The position numbers were made by a program, and so were the translations under genes. The notes beneath the pieces were generated by a model that was not told the origin of the DNA, ran no database searches, and saw only the letters and a list, made by a program, of their open reading frames with translations. From Candidatus Dojkabacteria bacterium (GTDB taxonomy: Bacteria; Patescibacteriota; Dojkabacteria; JAHIVN01): a DNA stretch of 64,000 nt. The DNA lies in assembly GCA_016932045.1 (NCBI GenBank), contig JAFGDO010000032.1:127612-191611 (forward strand), in the 5' to 3' direction. Position 1 is the first letter of the stretch, and every line of letters starts with the position of its first letter. Positions 2,922 to 52,822 of the stretch are shown one piece after another.

Positions 2922-3404
2922 CTATGATTTGTGGAATATTTTTGTTTCGAGAGTAACTAATAATTTCTTTAAACCCATTTCTTCATAGAATTTTATTCCC
3001 TTCTCGTTCTTTGCATATGCTTCCACTCTAATTCTTTCGACATTTCTGTTCCTGCACCATTCTAAAAAGTATTTGCATAAAAGACTACCGATTCCCTTAC
3101 TCCTAAAATCCTTCAAAATAAACATATTTTCTAGTTCAGCGACTTTCACATTCTTCTTAAAAGAACCCATTTCTTTTAGACCTCCGCATAAATATCCTAT
3201 TACCTCATCTCTTTGGACAGCCACCAAAACACAGCCGTTTCTCAGCCTTTTTTTGAAATACTTTTCTCCGTCTTTTTCAAAAGGCCAGTTAATGTTTAAA
3301 GTCCTATCGTACTCCTTAAATTCTTTTCTAAATAGCTTTTGATTTAGGGTCTGAATTCTTTTTAGATCACTAACTTTGGCTTTACTAATCTGCACTCGCA
3401 ACAT
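2922..3404 (-). CDS. GNAT family N-acetyltransferase
   Basis: Acetyl-CoA binding motif region (FRSKGIGSLL) and GNAT-like length. Confidence 0.8.
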   Translation of the reverse strand: MLRVQISKAKVSDLKRIQTLNQKLFRKEFKEYDRTLNINWPFEKDGEKYFKKRLRNGCVLVAVQRDEVIGYLCGGLKEMGSFKKNVKVAELENMFILKDFRSKGIGSLLCKYFLEWCRNRNVERIRVEAYAKNEKGIKFYEEMGLKKLLVTLETKIFHKS

Positions 3405-3410
3405 AGTTTC

Positions 3411-4121
3411 TTAGACACTTTTTAATACACATATAATATGTACTCTGAAGTTTTTTAAAAAAGGCAAACTTAAGATAGCTTCAAGAGCAACTCCAAAAAA
3501 GAAAAAAAGCTTACTTATTGCAATGTACGTTGGATCACCGTTTAGTATAAATTCTTCAATTTGAAAACCATTATCTGAAGCAAGACTTTTAATTCTAGAC
3601 CAAGAATTTGCTTTATAAAAAGCAGGCATGGGGTCAGTTACCAGATCTTTATTCATCCTTTTTGCTATGAGATTTCTCAAACTTGCCGGAATAAGTCTAT
3701 TTAAAATCACAACATAGTTCAGAGCATTAGGAGTCAAGAAAATTACTTTTCCGCCTTCTTTCAAAACCCGAGAGAATTCTTTAAAAATTTCCTTTGGATT
3801 TTTTAAGTGTTCCAAAACCCAGGAAGATATAATTAAATCTATAGATTTATCTTTCACTTGAGGCATGCTTTCGAGATTCGCTACTATTTTTTCCTTAAGA
3901 AGCGGATTAAGTTCTAGAAATTCTTTATTTACATCTACTCCAATAACCTTTTTAGCCCTCTGGTATTCATTCTTAAAAAGATTTGAGAATCCGCAGCCTG
4001 CCTCGAGAACAACTGTATCTTTATTTATATTTTCTGCAACCAAATTCTTGTATATCGAAACGGAATCAGCCCAAGACTTATTTATACTCTTATAAAGTTT
4101 TCTATAATCTTCTTGTTGCAT
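3411..4121 (-). CDS. class I SAM-dependent methyltransferase
   Basis: Motif I VLEAGCGFS, motif GGKVIFLTPN. Start probably at internal ATG (MQQEDYRK...) rather than ORF start 4157. Confidence 0.75.
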   Translation of the reverse strand: MQQEDYRKLYKSINKSWADSVSIYKNLVAENINKDTVVLEAGCGFSNLFKNEYQRAKKVIGVDVNKEFLELNPLLKEKIVANLESMPQVKDKSIDLIISSWVLEHLKNPKEIFKEFSRVLKEGGKVIFLTPNALNYVVILNRLIPASLRNLIAKRMNKDLVTDPMPAFYKANSWSRIKSLASDNGFQIEEFILNGDPTYIAISKLFFFFGVALEAILSLPFLKNFRVHIICVLKSV

Positions 4122-4174
4122 AGTAAAAAATAGGGCAGTACAGAATATATTCCGCACTACCCTTATAAGTCATC

Positions 4175-5305
4175 TTAATCAAGTCTCATAGGCATAATTA
4201 TATGCAGAAAGTCTTTATCTTCGCTATCCTTGAATACTCCAGGTGCTGTAACTCCATTTGTTTCAAATAGAACTTCCTCTCCTTCTATAGCATTTATCAT
4301 TTCACTTAAGAAGCCAACGTTGTAACCTGTCTTTAAACTATCTCCTTCAACGTCGTGGACTTCTACTATGCTTTCATTTTCTCCTACATCTGCAACTTGT
4401 GCTGACAGCTTAAGAGCGTTTTTCTCAGGCATAAATTCGAATATAGCTTTATTCCCAACTGCAGCTCTTGCAAATATGCTTACCACTTTCACTGTTTTTG
4501 CAAGAGATTCCTTATCTGCACTGAACTTATACTTTGCTTCTTTAGGCATTATTTGCTCGTATTCTGGGAATTCTCCCTCGATCAGCCTTGTAGATATCTC
4601 AACATCTTTTACTTTAAATAACATCTGATTCTTATCGCCAAGGATAAAAACCTCAAGGTCATCATCCTCTTCACATGTATCAAGAGCAATTCTAGCAACT
4701 TCATTCAAAGCCCTTGCTGGAACAATATGTTTAAACTCATCTGTCTTTTTTCTCTCTATATCAATCACCTTTTTGGAAAGGCGAAATCCATCCACACCTA
4801 CCATGGAAATACGCTTTTTAGTAGCCTCAAATAGTACTCCTGTTAGCACAGGTCTTGAGTCATCAGATGCTGAAGAGAAAGTTACCTTTTGCAAGGATTT
4901 TGCAAAAGCACAAGCTTTAACTTTGAAATCGGCTTTTCCTGTTGTCTCTGGTAGGGGAGGAAATTCTTCTGCATCCACAACATTAAACTCAGCACTGTTC
5001 ATTTTGTTATGCACAGAAAGAAGTTTTCCCTCAAGTTCGACATTCAATTTCCCGCTAGAAGATAGCGAATTCACAAATTCCGACAAGGTCTTCGCATCAA
5101 CTGTAATTTTACCTGGAGCTTTTGTATCAGCCCCTATCTGAGTAGATATACCTATTTCAAGATCAGTTGTCGAAAGTATAAGTGTATCTTTTGTTATCTC
5201 CATCAATACATTTGACAAGACGGGGATAGAAGGATTTGAACTTATTGCTTTTGAAACATAATTTAAAGCTTTAGCAAAGTTTTCTTGTGTTACAGTTGCT
5301 CTCAT
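4175..5305 (-). CDS. dnaN: DNA polymerase III beta subunit (sliding clamp)
   Basis: Three-domain clamp, N-terminus MRATVTQENFAKALNYVSKAISSNPSIPVLSNVLMEI, immediately downstream of dnaA. Confidence 0.9.
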   Translation of the reverse strand: MRATVTQENFAKALNYVSKAISSNPSIPVLSNVLMEITKDTLILSTTDLEIGISTQIGADTKAPGKITVDAKTLSEFVNSLSSSGKLNVELEGKLLSVHNKMNSAEFNVVDAEEFPPLPETTGKADFKVKACAFAKSLQKVTFSSASDDSRPVLTGVLFEATKKRISMVGVDGFRLSKKVIDIERKKTDEFKHIVPARALNEVARIALDTCEEDDDLEVFILGDKNQMLFKVKDVEISTRLIEGEFPEYEQIMPKEAKYKFSADKESLAKTVKVVSIFARAAVGNKAIFEFMPEKNALKLSAQVADVGENESIVEVHDVEGDSLKTGYNVGFLSEMINAIEGEEVLFETNGVTAPGVFKDSEDKDFLHIIMPMRLD

Positions 5306-47004: not shown

Positions 47005-48096
47005 ATGAAGATAGGAAAAAAAGATAAACAAAAATTGAAAGAACTAGTTAAAAGGGGGCATATTCAGGGATATCTCACACAGGATGAGGTCCTCGAAATA
47101 TTCCCTGAAATTGAGGAGGATTTGTCCCTACTTGAATACCTAATCATAAAACTTCAAGATGAAGAAATAGAAATTATTGAGCCACTTGACGAAGCTGTGG
47201 AGCCTGTAGAAGCTGAGCGTATGGATTTTGAAAGGAAGATTCAGGTTCTTAAGAAAATTCGTTCTCACATCTCTACCGATCCCATAAGGGCATACCTGCA
47301 TGAGATCGGAAAGATACCCCTTCTGACAGCCGAAGAAGAGGTTATACTTGCCAAAAGGATAGAAAAAGGTGATAAAGAAGCGAAGGACCTACTTACAACG
47401 GCGAATCTCCGATTAGTTGTAAGTATAGCAAAAAAGTATTCGAAGAGGGGGCTGGATCTTTTGGATTTGATACAGGAAGGGAATATCGGTCTAATGCGTG
47501 CCGTAGAAAAGTTTGAATATAAGAAAGGGTTTAAATTTTCCACCTATGCTACTTGGTGGATTCGTCAGGCTATAACTAGAGCCATTGCTGATCAGGCTAG
47601 AACTATAAGAATTCCTGTTCATATGATCGAAACCATAAACAAGTTGAGCAAAGTGATAAATAAACTTTCTGCAAAGCTTGGTAGAAGTCCAGAACCTGAA
47701 GAGATAGCAGAGGAAATGGACATGGAGGTTGACAAGATTCATGAGATTATCAAGATTGCTCAACGTCCATCATCTCTTGATGCTCCAATAGGAGAAGAGC
47801 AGGATAGTAAACTTGGAGATATTATTCCGGACGAGTATGGTGTTGCTCCGGCGGATATTGCTAGCTGGGCATTTCTCAAAAAACAGGTTAATAAGATGCT
47901 TGCCAAACTAACCGACAGGGAGAAGAAGGTGCTAGAGTTGAGATTTGGACTGAAGGACGGAGTCTCGCGTACTTTAGAGGAAGTGGGGCATGAATTCCGG
48001 GTTACAAGAGAAAGGATAAGGCAAATCGAAGCAAAAGCGCTAAAGGCTCTGAAATCTCCTGAGATCAAACAAGCTTTTAAAGATTACCTGAAGTAA
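47005..48096 (+). CDS. rpoD: RNA polymerase sigma-70 factor
   Basis: Region 2 ([28 protein letters not shown]) and region 4 ([23 protein letters not shown]). Start likely ATG 47005. Confidence 0.9.
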
Positions 48097-48146
48097 GATT
48101 CCCCTGGGTATATAATTTGATCAAGTTGAGCAAATCTCTTCACTGT

Positions 48147-48175
48147 TTGACAAAGCCGAGAAATTGCTGTATTGT
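48147..48175 (+). promoter_or_regulatory. sigma-70-like promoter for the riboswitch-controlled operon
   Basis: TTGACA (48147-48152), 17-nt spacer, TATTGT (48170-48175). Confidence 0.4.
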
Positions 48176-48189
48176 CAAGCTACAATTTT

Positions 48190-48345
48190 TTATTTGGGGC
48201 AAGAAGCGATGAACTTGATTGGTTTATCGTGTAGGGTGAGATTCCCTCGCTGTGCCGCAACTGTCCATGAAGTAGAGAAATTTACTTCATGGGAAAGTCA
48301 GAAAACCCAAGTGAAAATTTTAAACTCTCGAGCAAGGGGTTTTGA
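48190..48345 (+). promoter_or_regulatory. cobalamin (B12) riboswitch
   Basis: Conserved elements in order: GGGTGAGATTCC, CTGTGCCGCAACTGTCC, GGGAAAG, and B12-box-like AGTCAGAAAACC. Followed by a terminator. Confidence 0.65.
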
Positions 48346-48395
48346 TTCAATTTAAGTGATCAAAATCAATTAGGAGAATTAAGTTCAGAATTAAC

Positions 48396-48429
48396 GATCC
48401 TCTCGAGAGAGAGGATTTTTGTTTTTTTT
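48396..48429 (+). terminator. intrinsic terminator (riboswitch expression platform)
   Basis: ATCCTCTC-GAGA-GAGAGGAT perfect 8-bp stem then TTTTTGTTTTTTTT. Confidence 0.6.
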
Positions 48430-48583
48430 AATGACTGAGAAGGTCAGAGTTTTTTGCTTACTAGTTAGGAACTATGGACAGGTTCTATGGATTTTTAATA
48501 TTGTAATGTGCTGTTTTGATCTTGGTTGAATAAATTCCGGCTTTAGTCTGCCCATTTTTATTTTATTTTTTTTATTATTTTAA

Positions 48584-49075
48584 ATGGGTAAGTTAGATAA
48601 AAAGCAGCTTCTATGGGGTGCAGTAGCAGGAGCGATAACTGTCCTTCTTATGTTGGTAACTTATGTGGTCGGTATTGAAAAAGGGAAAGAAACCTCGGTT
48701 TTAAGCGAATCTCAGAATCAAGGGAATTACATAGATGACAAGGAAGTGTATATTGCAGTGAGATCAGACTGTACTGATTATGACCTAAGAACAGAGGAAG
48801 ATCATATGAGAAAATACTGTTTAAACTATATCGATGGTGAGACAGCTTTTAGTACTTTGGCAAGGCTTGATCAAGATTCAGAGGAATTCTCCTTTGATTA
48901 TGATGAAAGTGATTTCGGGGTTTTTATAACATCTATAAATAATTACCATCCTGATGTGAAAAGTAAGTTCTGGGCCTTTTTGGTTAACGGAGAAATGAGT
49001 ATGGTGGGTGTTAGTGATCATCTTGTTCAAGATGGTGACGAACTGGGGTTTAGAGTTGAGGAAGTGGTGTTTTAA
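48584..49075 (+). CDS. DUF4430-like secreted/membrane-anchored protein
   Basis: N-terminal TM, then the beta-grasp-like pattern W.F.VNGE…G…L.DGDEL.F seen in DUF4430. Confidence 0.6.
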   Translation: MGKLDKKQLLWGAVAGAITVLLMLVTYVVGIEKGKETSVLSESQNQGNYIDDKEVYIAVRSDCTDYDLRTEEDHMRKYCLNYIDGETAFSTLARLDQDSEEFSFDYDESDFGVFITSINNYHPDVKSKFWAFLVNGEMSMVGVSDHLVQDGDELGFRVEEVVF

Positions 49076-49135
49076 AAAGTAATATGAAGTTAATGATCTT
49101 ACATTCTTAATAATTAAAATTATAAACTGTCAATC

Positions 49136-49702
49136 ATGAAGGTCAAAGATGTTTTGCTTATCTTTATATACGTCCTACTTGGAGTCTTAACCAGAACTAT
49201 TTGGCACATTGCCCCTAATGTCGAGTTTGTAACTGCATTGTCTATAGCCAGCGCATTTTTCTTGAGGAAAAAGTACTCGTTCTTTGTACCAATTATAATT
49301 ATGGTTGTTAGTGATTTGATTATTGGCAATACTCCGATATTTCTTTTTACATGGTCAGCTTTTGCATTAGCCCATATATTGGGGAAGTCTCTGCATTTGA
49401 ATGTTGCAGATAGGCTGCTTGGAAAGATTGCTAGAGAAGTGAAGATATTGGTTGTGTCCGAATGCGGAGGAATAATTTTTTCACTATTTTTCTACCTCTG
49501 GACAAATTTTGGTGTAGTTGTTGTTTCAAATATGTATCCTAAAAATATAGAGGGTTTGTTTCTGAGCTACAAGATGGGCCTTCCCTTTTTATGGCCCCAG
49601 CTTATTGGCAATATGATCATTGTACCAGCAGTTTTTTTACTTACCGACATCGCATACAAGAGGAAGTTCAATATATTAAAAGGTGTAAGGGAGAAGGTGT
49701 GA
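49136..49702 (+). CDS. small polytopic membrane protein, putative ECF-type transporter substrate-specific (S) component
   Basis: 188 aa with about 6 hydrophobic helices. Co-transcribed candidate downstream of the B12 riboswitch and the DUF4430 gene. Confidence 0.45.
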   Translation: MKVKDVLLIFIYVLLGVLTRTIWHIAPNVEFVTALSIASAFFLRKKYSFFVPIIIMVVSDLIIGNTPIFLFTWSAFALAHILGKSLHLNVADRLLGKIAREVKILVVSECGGIIFSLFFYLWTNFGVVVVSNMYPKNIEGLFLSYKMGLPFLWPQLIGNMIIVPAVFLLTDIAYKRKFNILKGVREKV

Positions 49703-49781: not shown

Positions 49782-51125
49782 GTGAAGAGGACTATTACAT
49801 TCCTACTGATCTATCTTTTTACTCTCTCTTTCTTTCCCATCAGTGTTTTTGCACAGGAAACTCAGACAACTACACTTTTTCCTTCCCAAGATGCCACTAT
49901 TGTCCAGGGAAACTCAAGTAACTATGGAAGTCTATCCACATTGACTTGTGCAAATGATGGGGTAGAATTCAAGTCTTTTTCGGTTAAGTTTGACTTAGGA
50001 GTATTGCCTTCAAATGCACAAATTGAAAATGTTACTTTGAATTTAGTGCAGAATAATTCGGGAGGCGATACGGTTGTTGTTAATGTGTATAGAATTACAT
50101 CAAGCTGGGGTGAGACATCTGTGACTGGAACAAATAAGCCTACCATCGATACCGGAGTAAGCTATGGTGCATTATCTGTTGATACAAATAATGGGCAAAA
50201 AACATTTCCTCAGGATTTTTCAGGACTTATTAAGTCTTGGCTGGCAAATCCAAGTACGAATTTTGGGCTACATTTCGAAGCTACGACTTCAGCAAACTAC
50301 AGTCACGAATTCGGGAGTAGAGAAAGTGGAAGTAAGCCTTCGCTAGTTATTACTTATAGTATTCCTGATGAAGATTCTCCTGTCATATCTGATATTCAAG
50401 TGACAGAAATTTCCTCTGACGAAGTAACGATCAAATGGGTTACCAGCGAAGAGTCAACAAGTTATGTTGAATACGGGGAAGGTACAGATTATGGGAAGTT
50501 ATCAGGAAGTGATGACTTTGTTTCAAGTCATATAGTAAAGATCGGATTGCTTAAATCAGATGCTACATACCATTTTAAGGTTATCAGCGAAGATGCTGTC
50601 GGGAACAGGATTGAGTCTGAGGATCGGACATTTAAAACCTCTAAAGATGGGGAGGAGGAAGGGCCAGAAAAAAGCGATGAGCATGTTTCTTCTGATATCG
50701 CTCCGCCTCAACACCTTAAGTTAGCTATAGTCACTGAAGATGGCAAGTATTCTGTAGAATTAAAATGGGATCATACTATTACAGAAGACTTTGATGGATA
50801 TAGAATTTACAGAAGTGGAGAAGATGCTATCTCATACGTGTTATTGACAGAAGTAGGGCCTGATAAAACATATTACAAGGATCAGGAGGTTGAGAAGGGA
50901 AAAACTTATTTTTATATACTGAGGACTGTGAGGGGAGAAGAGGAATCGGCGGACTCAAATGAAGAAGTTGTTACTATTTACTCAAGTATACTTGGAGAAA
51001 GTTTGAACGGCCTAAGCTTTTGGAAAGGCTTTATCATTTGCAATATCTTTATTTTGCCTCTATTTGGCCTTGGATATTATTATTACAAGAAGAAAGGGAA
51101 GAGGCTAGGCAAGAAGAAAAAATGA
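49782..51125 (+). CDS. cell-surface protein: signal peptide, DNRLRE-like domain, two fibronectin type III domains, C-terminal TM anchor with polybasic tail
   Basis: Signal peptide (LIYLFTLSFFPISVFA). DNRLRE-like region (ATIVQGNSSNYGS…VNVYRITSSWGE). FN3 (EISSDEVTIKWVTSEESTSYVEYG…TYHFKV). C-terminal hydrophobic helix plus KKKGKRLGKKKK. Confidence 0.7.
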   Translation: MKRTITFLLIYLFTLSFFPISVFAQETQTTTLFPSQDATIVQGNSSNYGSLSTLTCANDGVEFKSFSVKFDLGVLPSNAQIENVTLNLVQNNSGGDTVVVNVYRITSSWGETSVTGTNKPTIDTGVSYGALSVDTNNGQKTFPQDFSGLIKSWLANPSTNFGLHFEATTSANYSHEFGSRESGSKPSLVITYSIPDEDSPVISDIQVTEISSDEVTIKWVTSEESTSYVEYGEGTDYGKLSGSDDFVSSHIVKIGLLKSDATYHFKVISEDAVGNRIESEDRTFKTSKDGEEEGPEKSDEHVSSDIAPPQHLKLAIVTEDGKYSVELKWDHTITEDFDGYRIYRSGEDAISYVLLTEVGPDKTYYKDQEVEKGKTYFYILRTVRGEEESADSNEEVVTIYSSILGESLNGLSFWKGFIICNIFILPLFGLGYYYYKKKGKRLGKKKK

Positions 51126-51222: not shown

Positions 51223-52038
51223 TTAGCTACTTGCAGAAGAGTAATGTTTAATCATTTTGTTCCAAAAGGTTATTGCGGCAAAAAGGAATACTATTGCTAA
51301 TATACCCCCTATTAGTATTGGCCCGCCCGAGGGCCCGTGCATCATAGTATAAGCAGGAATACTTGAAACAAAAACAACAGGAAAGATGTAGAAAAAGATA
51401 ACTTTTAGGGCACCTTCATAAACATGATGCGGATTTGATTTATAGAAGAATATATGTTCGCCGATACTTGGTATTGAAGGTGTATTTATAAAGAGAAAAG
51501 AGAATGAGGCCGATATTACAAGTATTGAGAAACCTATGATGAATCCGCAGGCTAGAAGAAAAATCCCCGCAAAGACACCGGAAGTATTTAAAGAGAGGTC
51601 CGAATGTGAAATTGCATAGAACATAAGGAAGAATCCAGAAATTGTTGATATAAAGCTCATGATATATGGGTGTCCTAGGCTTGCTTGGAATAGGCTATTA
51701 AGTGGCCTAAGAATGATAGCATCAAGAGCTCCGGTGCGGATTTTTTCGGGAAGTCTACGAAGGTTGAATATACTCAAAGCTCCAAGAAGAACTTCACTTG
51801 TTATCACGTTAATTCCGGCTAAGAATAGCATTTCATGATAACTCCATCCTGCAAGTTCCTTTATGTTGCTGAATATCACGTTAAAGAAGAGTATATGTGC
51901 CCCCTGATATCCAAACTCGACAGCTAGTTCCACAAAGAAGCTAATTCTGTAGCTTACAATTTCCATAAAGCTGTATTTGACCAGCAGAAGGTATATCCGC
52001 AAATATTTTTTAATTGCTTTAATTCCCGAAAGCTTCAT
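51223..52038 (-). CDS. ABC-2-type transporter permease
   Basis: 6-TM permease-like topology. Pairs with the upstream gene, which it overlaps by 20 nt. Confidence 0.55.
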   Translation of the reverse strand: MKLSGIKAIKKYLRIYLLLVKYSFMEIVSYRISFFVELAVEFGYQGAHILFFNVIFSNIKELAGWSYHEMLFLAGINVITSEVLLGALSIFNLRRLPEKIRTGALDAIILRPLNSLFQASLGHPYIMSFISTISGFFLMFYAISHSDLSLNTSGVFAGIFLLACGFIIGFSILVISASFSFLFINTPSIPSIGEHIFFYKSNPHHVYEGALKVIFFYIFPVVFVSSIPAYTMMHGPSGGPILIGGILAIVFLFAAITFWNKMIKHYSSASS

Positions 52039-52822
52039 ATTTTTTAATTCCTTTTTTCCACAGAATTAAACCTGAAATAAAAAAAATCAGTAACCACAAA
52101 AGAATTCCTGCTAAATCAGAGAGAATATTCTCCTGTATATTTCTGCTCCCAGAAAAATAACTTATAGGGACATAGTAGAAGTATTTAAAAGGGAGGTTTT
52201 CAAAAATTGTCCGAATATTTGCAGGTAGTAAGTCAAAAGGAAAGCTCAGGCCCCCAAAAACTGAAAATAGGATGTATTTAAAATGCCTGAAAGACCATAC
52301 ATCTGTTACCCAAAATGCTAGCCAGGAAATAAAAAGATCCATGATGAAGTGTAGAAGGAATCCTCCGGAAGCAAAAGCTAAGGCTAGAAGAATATTGTAG
52401 AACTTAAACTCGGAAGAAGGGAGGAGTTTCGAGTAAGTCACGATGATAATTAAATAGATCGGCAGGATAAGTACAAGGGTATGAATTTTTCTTGCTATCA
52501 TTTCTGCAAGACTATCCAGCCATAGGTTGTAAGGTTTCAAGAGATATTTTGATAATTCACCCGATCTTATCTCTTGAGATCTTTTACTTGAAATATCTAC
52601 CTGAGTTATAAATCCTATGAGAGGAACAATTAGATAATAGAGCAGAGTAGCTCCAAAGGTAAATCCTCTTATCTCATTTTCTGAGCGGAATATTGCAATC
52701 CAAAGTATGAGAACTTCTCCAATTGAAATAAGCTCGAGAATAATTATACCAACTAGATTTGCTCTATACTCGAGCATTGTACCAAGATAGTTTTTGAAAA
52801 GCTGAAGGTACTTTTTCATCAC
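52019..52822 (-). CDS. ABC-2-type transporter permease
   Basis: 6-TM permease-like topology. No ATPase gene adjacent. Confidence 0.55.
   Translation of the reverse strand: MMKKYLQLFKNYLGTMLEYRANLVGIIILELISIGEVLILWIAIFRSENEIRGFTFGATLLYYLIVPLIGFITQVDISSKRSQEIRSGELSKYLLKPYNLWLDSLAEMIARKIHTLVLILPIYLIIIVTYSKLLPSSEFKFYNILLALAFASGGFLLHFIMDLFISWLAFWVTDVWSFRHFKYILFSVFGGLSFPFDLLPANIRTIFENLPFKYFYYVPISYFSGSRNIQENILSDLAGILLWLLIFFISGLILWKKGIKKYEAFGN

Follow-up and report, generated by a model that had tools for sequence, protein, structure and literature searches.

A probable B12-repressed corrinoid-uptake operon, led by a riboswitch that scores below Rfam thresholds, in a Candidatus Dojkabacteria genome

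Introduction

How do organisms that do not make vitamin B12 bring it into the cell? Members of the Candidate Phyla Radiation (CPR, or Patescibacteria) and of DPANN have tiny genomes and no cofactor synthesis of their own, and many rely on a B12-dependent ribonucleotide reductase (RNR); a literature search found no paper on how CPR or DPANN organisms import B12. The question is raised by a 64-kb contig stretch from Candidatus Dojkabacteria (CPR/Patescibacteria), hereafter the window. Downstream of rpoD, which ends at 48096, a structured RNA leader precedes two genes that encode a DUF4430 protein and a DUF6580 protein, both 100% identical to NCBI entries of Candidatus Dojkabacteria. The leader belongs to the cobalamin clan of riboswitches and carries a terminator platform; the locus is likely a B12-repressed corrinoid-uptake operon. 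The overall design, a B12 riboswitch placed ahead of B12 uptake genes, is textbook knowledge. The parts of the locus, in window coordinates, are the following.

48147–48175 (+), sigma-70-type promoter of predicted function: −35 TTGACA at 48147–48152, 17-nt spacer, −10 TATTGT at 48170–48175; promoter scan, 10 of 12 matches
48191–48313 (+), cobalamin riboswitch aptamer; match to covariance model R1 (see below), sub-threshold Rfam AdoCbl alignment over the same core, covariation
48191–48198 with 48306–48313 (+), closing helix P3; covariation in the close clade
48206–48230 (+), 10-bp lineage-specific hairpin between J3/4 (CAAG) and P4; minimum-free-energy (MFE) fold
48233–48236 with 48244–48247 (+), P4, loop UGAGAUU; covariation
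48251–48253 with 48257–48259 (+), P5, with L5 GCC at 48254–48256; covariation
48261–48263 with 48299–48301 (+), P6; covariation
48265–48293 (+), P6 extension hairpin of ~13 bp; MFE fold, clade alignment, 28-nt insertion in the R1 alignment
48294–48307 (+), B12-box-like AAAGUCAGAAAACC; read from the sequence
48325–48328 with 48335–48338 (+), P13 hairpin, with loop L13 CGAGCA at 48329–48334; part of the R1 match, covariation
48340–48365 (+), extra platform hairpin UUUUGAU...AUCAAAA; MFE fold
48396–48429 (+), intrinsic terminator, stem 48396–48404 with 48409–48417, U-tract to 48429; terminator scan
48548–48553 (+), conserved CUGCCC motif ~30 nt before the start codon; seen in the window and seven relatives
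48584–49075 (+), DUF4430 protein, 163 aa; Pfam PF14478, 49.7 bits against a cut-off of 23.8
49136–49702 (+), DUF6580 protein, 188 aa, about six transmembrane helices; Pfam PF20221, 94 bits against a cut-off of 27

The riboswitch aptamer

The leader is identified as a cobalamin riboswitch because riboswitches verified by Rfam, to which it is homologous, occupy the same place in homologous operons and because its helices covary. The window was compared with related genomic loci, which carry L-numbers (L001, L033, L082 and so on). The window and its seven closest relatives form a close clade of eight members with proteins ~45–62% identical, and the gene-pair statistics come from 80 genomic loci encoding DUF6580, mostly from CPR and one from a DPANN archaeon. 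An nhmmer search found the leader upstream of the DUF4430–DUF6580 pair in eight close relatives, and with the leader core it gave weak matches, all on the coding strand, at ~500–700 nt ahead of many distant DUF6580 genes. At exactly these matched positions of the distant loci, Rfam 15 reports above-threshold members of its cobalamin clan CL00101, namely RF01689 (AdoCbl-II), RF01482 (AdoCbl) and RF00174 (Cobalamin). The Rfam-positive distant loci share the core GGGUGAAAUUCCCUCACUGUGCCGCAACNGU...AAAGUCNGA, which is almost the same as that of the window, and the window core is nearly identical to the core of L033 (RF01689, 53.8 bits).

We built the covariance model R1 from a seed of 29 sequences, 19 of which pass Rfam thresholds, with the window and its clade excluded. 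The closing helices P2/P3 could not be aligned in one register across subtypes and were left out, P3 being tested separately within the clade; the pairs (22,39) and (150,164) were dropped for want of support in the seed alignment. Across both strands of the window, R1 gives a single full-length match at 48210–48338 (+) with 55.9 bits and an E-value of 3.5e-10, which is rough because the calibration was shortened. R1 finds 66 elements in the related loci, 65 of them on the coding strand, and a riboswitch lies upstream of the pair in at least 47 of the 80 genomic loci.

The cobalamin core order can be read directly in the window: P4 with a GGUGA..UCC loop, P5/L5 CUGUGCCGCAAC, P6 and a B12-box-like AGUCNG. 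The first-pass annotation of this DNA had listed core motifs in order and proposed a cobalamin riboswitch with a terminator platform. All of these motifs are present in that order between 48234 and 48308, as GGGTGAGATTCC (48234–48245), CTGTGCCGCAACTGTCC (48250–48266), GGGAAAG (48291–48297) and AGTCAGAAAACC (48297–48308), and the proposal is borne out by R1, by covariation and by the Rfam-verified homologs. The 261-nt leader has an MFE z-score of −5.6 against 200 shuffles; the P4 pairing of the MFE fold was discarded, as it disagrees with the structure supported by covariation.

Compared with the riboswitches of clan CL00101, the window RNA shares the junction core, the B12-box-like AGUCNG, the L5–L13 kissing loop and the OFF-switch logic ahead of uptake genes; it differs from the clan models in the conserved CGAGCA loop of L13. 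Its short core is like that of AdoCbl-II, to which it adds the P6 extension and the hairpin between J3/4 and P4. The window, L001, L002 and L081 carry the latter insert, L082, L086 and L087 do not, and the extra sequence of L089 appears to be located in the P4 loop. The P6 extension differs in sequence in each relative yet stays self-complementary, and it is missing from the minimal AdoCbl-II-type relatives.

Covariation extends over the whole fold. In an alignment of 66 sequences, which was fitted to the helices of R1 and thus favors them, 97.6% of cells form standard pairs versus 77.7% in shuffles, and in 11 of 15 pairs both partners change. Pairing falls to 29–47% in slid controls, with partners moved by 1–3 columns. 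P4, P5 (UA/AU/GC), P6 (GC/UA/CG/AU) and P13 all covary, P6 being CUG/CAG in the window and CAG/CUG in all relatives. We propose a kissing loop in which GCA at 48332–48334 pairs with UGC at 48253–48255 of P5/L5. The corresponding L5–L13 pairs (columns 88–283 and 89–282) are not in R1 and pair in 95% of cells (GC 53, CG 4, AU 2, GU 2). P3, likewise outside R1, keeps seven to eight of its eight pairs throughout the eight-member clade, its sequence differing in nearly every member. The compensatory changes in P3, P6, the P6 extension and L5–L13 indicate that the structure has probably been kept by purifying selection.

The expression platform

The platform downstream of the aptamer has the parts of a transcriptional switch. 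The promoter and the hairpin with U-tract named in the first-pass annotation were both recovered: the promoter scan found TTGACA/17 nt/TATTGT at 48147–48175, and many related loci likewise have a TTGACA-like hexamer ahead of the riboswitch; the terminator hairpin (48396–48417) has nine pairs, eight Watson–Crick and one G–U, followed by TTTTTGTTTTTTTT. Hairpin and U-tract are kept in all eight clade members. Upstream of them, CUCUCGAG (48325–48332) is perfectly complementary to CUCGAGAG (48402–48409), which spans the terminator loop and part of the 3′ arm, so that the two can form an antiterminator. For the isolated platform, the antiterminator is the MFE structure at −28.8 kcal/mol, versus −27.6 and −25.0 kcal/mol for the terminator states, and it becomes the best fold once 48409 is transcribed, that is, before the terminator. 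The platform hairpin at 48340–48365, which is specific to the window (absent in L081, L082 and L086), joins the extended antiterminator helix in the energy calculation. Promoter, antiterminator and terminator would together constitute a transcriptional OFF-switch. In other lineages, P13 reaches into the ribosome-binding site and the start codon (gaps of 1–7 nt); the same aptamer therefore serves transcriptional and translational control.

A second conserved sequence lies closer to the first gene. The motif (A)CUGCC(C/U) is found ~25–35 nt before the DUF4430 start in the window, L001, L002, L081 (as CTGTCC), L082, L086, L087 and L089, where it precedes an AT-rich stretch; loci in which the riboswitch directly adjoins the start codon lack it. 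Its UGCC is complementary to GGCA in J3/4 (48197–48201), and in L086 UGCCU is matched by AGGCA. The long spacers between terminator and start codon in L082 (811–1217), L087 (1621–1982) and L086 (3815–4000) hold repeated small hairpins, ATCCCGTAGAACGGGAT, with a REP-type look.

The DUF4430 protein

The first protein of the operon resembles the transcobalamin-type proteins in fold. Its AlphaFold2 model (predicted local distance difference test score, pLDDT, 83.6) consists of an N-terminal helix (residues 6–34), a disordered linker (33–50) and a globular domain. In a fold search of the PDB, transcobalamin, haptocorrin, intrinsic factor and the DUF4430 structure 3U7Z account for the top 19 matches of the model. 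The globular domain gives TM-scores of 0.71–0.73 at a probability of 1.00 when compared with the isolated transcobalamin beta-domain, also in its complex with cyanocobalamin, and a profile search detects weak sequence similarity to the same transcobalamin-type proteins. The beta-domain of transcobalamin, intrinsic factor and haptocorrin (PDB 5NP4, 2BB5, 4KKI, 2PMV) thus has the same fold as the window domain, whereas the window protein lacks their alpha-domain, is membrane-anchored and is prokaryotic. NCBIfam has no match for the DUF4430 protein or the DUF6580 protein. We regard the DUF4430 protein, on its modeled fold, as a candidate CbrS-like, membrane-anchored corrinoid binder (CbrS is taken up below); the literature search turned up no experiment in which a bacterial DUF4430 protein bound B12. 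Bacteroides BtuH was considered as a DUF4430 carrier and ruled out: its B12-binding domain is DUF4465.

Two arrangements in related loci concern this protein. In L028 (1989–3904), a prenyltransferase-like alpha/alpha-toroid protein of 444 aa is encoded between DUF4430 and DUF6580; the toroid protein and DUF4430 might resemble a transcobalamin split into its two domains. In the metagenomic loci L112–L114 (~3014–3807), the gene for a canonical ECF_trnsprt S-component of energy-coupling factor (ECF) transporters lies directly upstream of the DUF4430 gene, so that DUF4430 has partners in more than one S-component family.

The DUF6580 protein

The second protein has the fold of an S-component. Its AlphaFold2 model (pLDDT 90.3) shows about six transmembrane helices, and RibU, 5EDL, PanT, CbiM, FolT, BioY and cyanocobalamin-bound BtuM fill seven of the eight top places of the fold search, with TM-scores of 0.46–0.57. 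A single-sequence search of the PDB gave no match, and the window protein matches DUF6580 only, with no Pfam match to ECF_trnsprt (PF12822); one DUF6580 homolog (P0109) carries a precomputed PF12822 match. His24 is conserved in 31 of 35 aligned DUF6580 sequences, and R20, T21, N28, E30, T33 and D60 are conserved as well; no cysteine stands in an invariant or nearly invariant column of the DUF6580 alignment. At 50% identity (E ≤ 1e-3) the family comprises 4,349 representatives, nearly all of them single-domain, and no DUF4430–DUF6580 fusion was found among the longer members of the top 150 representatives. In the searchable literature, neither DUF6580 nor PF20221 is mentioned in any paper, and no paper brings Patescibacteria and cobalamin riboswitches together. 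By its modeled structure, the DUF6580 protein is a candidate ECF S-component-like corrinoid transporter.

The closest parallel is the CbrS–CbrT system, which Rodionov et al. reportedly predicted in 2009. The characterized CbrT, part of the vitamin B12 transporter ECF-CbrT of Lactobacillus delbrueckii (PDB 6FNP), is encoded in an nrdJ–cbrS–cbrT–pduO cluster, which led to the prediction and later the proof of ECF-CbrT (Santos et al. 2018, PMC5997447). Around a CbrT homolog we found the gene order RNR-II, DUF4430, DUF4430, S-component, PduO; CbrS is therefore a DUF4430 protein. In both systems, then, a DUF4430 protein precedes a small membrane protein of S-component type with six helices, and class II RNR and a cobalamin adenosyltransferase accompany both, for DUF4430–DUF6580 in the relatives and not in the window itself. 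CbrT and DUF6580 share motifs in helices 1–3, R-x(4-5)-PNV-x-x-VT and M-x-x-S-[DN]-x-x-x-G. They differ in family, CbrT belonging to ECF_trnsprt and the window protein to DUF6580; in helix 1, where CbrT conserves an AxxxA pattern (A12, A15, A19) and DUF6580 has bulky hydrophobic residues; in control, the Lactobacillus cbr cluster having no Rfam riboswitch and the CPR operons usually being riboswitch-led; and in the membrane-anchor helix of the CPR DUF4430 protein. The binding and transport components assigned by the first-pass annotation to the two downstream genes gain support from the DUF4430 beta-domain fold, the DUF6580 S-component fold and this parallel.

Genomic neighborhood and substrate

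The genes around the pair point to complete corrinoids as the substrate. DUF4430 lies directly upstream of DUF6580 on the same strand in 73 of the 80 loci, as in the window. Recurrent neighbors are RNR (29 loci), a PduO-type adenosyltransferase (19), a CobA/BtuR-type adenosyltransferase (14), NrdR and thioredoxin. Five of the RNRs were tested: three pass the NrdJ_Z equivalog cut-off (640–755 bits against 400), and two are RTPR-like and fall just under theirs. Neither genes for corrinoid remodeling or biosynthesis nor other transporters recur near the pair.

Import of a B12 precursor or fragment (cobinamide, alpha-ribazole or dimethylbenzimidazole) or of cobalt by the pair, in place of a complete corrinoid, is improbable. 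Riboswitch control by itself leaves the substrate unfixed, and other S-components under B12-riboswitch control, such as CblT or CbiM, import precursors or cobalt. The match to CbiM in the fold search fits such a substrate, and ECF-CbrT transports cobinamide as well (PMC5997447). The neighboring genes argue otherwise: NrdJ, PduO and CobA/BtuR use or adenosylate complete corrinoids and, as noted, remodeling genes are not among the recurrent ones. So does the partner protein with its transcobalamin beta-domain fold, since this domain of transcobalamin contacts the nucleotide-loop side of complete cobalamin.

Evidence against a B12-repressed uptake operon

Four groups of observations weigh against reading the locus as a B12-repressed corrinoid-uptake operon. 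First, at gathering thresholds Rfam finds only a tRNA in the window and none of its cobalamin models. A permissive scan of 48090–48600 (511 nt) gives RF01482 as the best match of the clan, with 26.9 bits against a gathering score of 50 (E = 0.0068), and RF00174, RF01482 and RF01689 all stay under their gathering scores in the window and its seven closest relatives. The check that the first-pass annotation had set, an Rfam cobalamin model above threshold, thus failed. Second, a search for B12-dependent enzymes and adenosyltransferases gave none in the ten largest open reading frames (ORFs) of the window (Pfam), in its ORFs of at least 100 aa (BLAST against the neighbor families) or in the genes called over ~10 kb past its left end; that this genome uses B12 is therefore read from its relatives. 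Third, the Foldseek E-values of the S-component matches are weak (0.15 or higher), and the sequence link to CbrT is marginal: CbrT (6FNP_A) is the only PDB sequence match of the DUF6580 profile at E = 0.19, and hhalign against the CbrT family gives E = 6.7e-4 at a probability of 27% over 66 columns in helices 1–3. Fourth, the spacer between terminator and start codon is 154 nt long in the window, and some transcription may be independent of the riboswitch, because the spacer holds a promoter-like TGGACA/TATTGT (48475–48504) with 9 of 12 matches.

The Rfam result is a false negative, a sensitivity gap for this lineage and not an absence of the element, as R1, the Rfam-verified homologous loci and covariation support the riboswitch. 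All 20 Rfam cobalamin matches in the related loci coincide with R1 matches and none lies outside them, whereas Rfam thresholds pass only 20 of the 39 R1 matches tested. Rfam 15 therefore misses about half of the CPR cobalamin riboswitch subclass, including the entire clade of the window. The cause is likely the P6 extension on a short AdoCbl-II-like core and, in the window, also the hairpin at 48206–48230. It follows that the B12 regulons of CPR genomes are probably under-annotated.

A more radical view of the same facts would make the leader a decayed riboswitch relic, the hairpin at 48396–48417 the terminator of rpoD, and the two genes constitutive from a promoter in the spacer. The sub-threshold Rfam scores and the promoter-like site would suit it, and no other terminator lies between rpoD and the hairpin. 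We nevertheless consider it very improbable, since aptamer, P13 and terminator are kept in eight relatives at the protein divergence given above, and a relic would hardly show the compensatory changes in P3, P6, the P6 extension and L5–L13. Moreover, the spacer is just 23–64 nt in L001, L002, L081 and L089, and the promoter-like match is within chance, nine such 9-of-12 sites being found against 5.8 ± 2.8 expected.

The weak E-values, in turn, would be expected if the DUF6580 protein were no transporter at all but had another role as a small membrane protein, such as anchoring the DUF4430 protein or acting as its receptor, with the corrinoid entering otherwise; the family is known from sequence and predicted structure alone, and NCBIfam has no DUF6580 model. 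This too is very unlikely. Seven of the eight top fold matches are S-components, obtained with a model of high confidence, and the sole PDB sequence match is a B12 S-component. In addition, DUF6580 sits exactly at the position of CbrT in a conserved gene cluster, and no other transporter recurs near it. A B12-repressed corrinoid-uptake operon remains the preferred reading.

Proposed mechanism and energy coupling

For ligand binding, switching, hand-over between the two proteins and the substrate, we infer the following sequence. Transcription would start at the TTGACA/TATTGT promoter, and the leader would fold as a class-II-like four-way junction (P3–P6) with two lineage-specific hairpins. When no ligand is bound, CUCUCGAG would pair with CUCGAGAG, the terminator would be blocked, and RNA polymerase would read into the genes. 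Upon corrinoid binding, L5 would kiss L13 and lock P13, making CUCUCGAG unavailable, and the terminator at 48396–48417 would form and stop transcription. The DUF4430 protein, held by its one-helix anchor, would display the transcobalamin-beta-like domain outside the cell, capture a corrinoid and hand it to DUF6580, which would carry it across the membrane, probably by S-component toppling. Inside the cell, an adenosyltransferase would adenosylate the corrinoid for class II RNR. The locus and ~50 riboswitch-linked homologous loci suggest a B12 import route in CPR and a testable function for DUF6580; the same comparison offers a possible function for bacterial DUF4430 (CbrS).

Energy coupling is the least certain step of this mechanism. 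The first-pass annotation had placed the ECF A/T module outside the operon, and this proved correct over a wider range: no ABC ATPase (ATP-binding cassette) motif occurs in window ORFs of at least 60 aa, the only Walker-A ORF being DnaA; the genes called over ~10 kb past the left end of the window include no ECF module; and none is systematically near the pair in 123 loci. Two ABC ATPases near the pair among these 123 loci were rejected as ECF components, one being SufC beside SufB and the other lying on the opposite strand. The ten largest unannotated ORFs of the window, taken as candidate B12 or ECF parts, are unrelated (CoA ligase, UvrD/PD-(D/E)XK helicase, POR subunits, Mur ligase and others). 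The absence of a module nearby is not decisive, because the genes of group II S-components and of their ECF module normally lie apart.

There is about an even chance that DUF6580 is energized by a shared ECF module encoded elsewhere, by analogy with CbrT. In group II S-components, AxxxA in helix 1 is the docking motif for EcfT. Helix 1 of the 35 DUF6580 sequences has no conserved small-residue pattern or AxxxA; V, I or L stands at the positions aligned to the CbrT motif, and the window protein has no alanine there.

It is also quite possible, if short of even, that DUF6580 works independently of a module, as BtuM does. BtuM of Thiobacillus denitrificans (PDB 6FFV/8C7P) is a solitary S-component that imports B12 without an ECF module (Rempel et al. 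2018, PMC6072759). Like DUF6580, it is a small S-component-fold membrane protein implicated in B12 uptake, and it gives the best TM-score (0.57/0.60), with no sequence similarity detectable in PDB sequence and profile searches. BtuM differs in its setting, as it belongs to Gram-negative proteobacteria and acts alongside BtuB, without accessory components. It ligates cobalt by a cysteine, whereas DUF6580 has no invariant cysteine. That DUF6580 is energized by something else has a slim chance.

The fullest form of the module-independent model, which we hold tentatively and consider somewhat doubtful, has DUF6580 and the anchored DUF4430 protein import B12 as a two-protein system that is complete without an ECF module and driven by trapping, and makes this the standard entry route in CPR and some DPANN. 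A transcobalamin-beta-like receptor would here feed a solitary S-component, with adenosylation and NrdJ binding as the trap. Should the transporter indeed need no ECF module, DUF6580 would join BtuM as a second family of B12 importers that act as solitary S-components.

Other genes in the window and in related loci

Two features of the window lie downstream of the gene pair. A CBM96/DNRLRE and FN3 surface protein is encoded after DUF6580 at 49782–51125 (+), an order also seen in L001, L002, L082 and L083. It is followed at 51223–52822 (−) by two adjacent ABC-2 permease genes (ABC2_membrane_6) with no neighboring gene for an ABC ATPase.

In the related loci, further genes stand behind cobalamin riboswitches. 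In the Gottesmanbacteria loci (L044:1170–3593, L014:1038–3443, L068:832–3465 and others) the riboswitch heads a longer operon with the order ~800-aa protein, DUF4430, DUF6580, 152-aa protein and ~781-aa HerA/TraG-like ATPase; the ~800-aa first protein has no match in Pfam, NCBIfam or the PDB. ORFs of 437–659 aa with no Pfam match lie directly behind CPR riboswitches in L029 (4612–6441), L034 (4684–6663) and L063 (4862–6175), and a 757-aa ORF, again with no Pfam match, follows the riboswitch-controlled DUF4430–DUF6580 pair in L050 (4563–6836).

A second cobalamin riboswitch lies directly downstream of DUF6580 in L066 (4489–5430), L069 (3164–4066), L056 (4732–5754) and L065 (4735–5721), ahead of proteins of ~300–340 aa. 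These have no Pfam or NCBIfam match and are related to one another (BLAST E down to 2e-33), and one of them weakly matches an archaeal Replication factor A in the PDB (E = 2.5e-4). Just after the ORF controlled by the second riboswitch in L069, Rfam finds a group I intron (4142–4328; 67.8 bits), and in L003 (Saccharibacteria) a T-box leader of 95.8 bits lies immediately downstream of DUF6580 (4549–4738).

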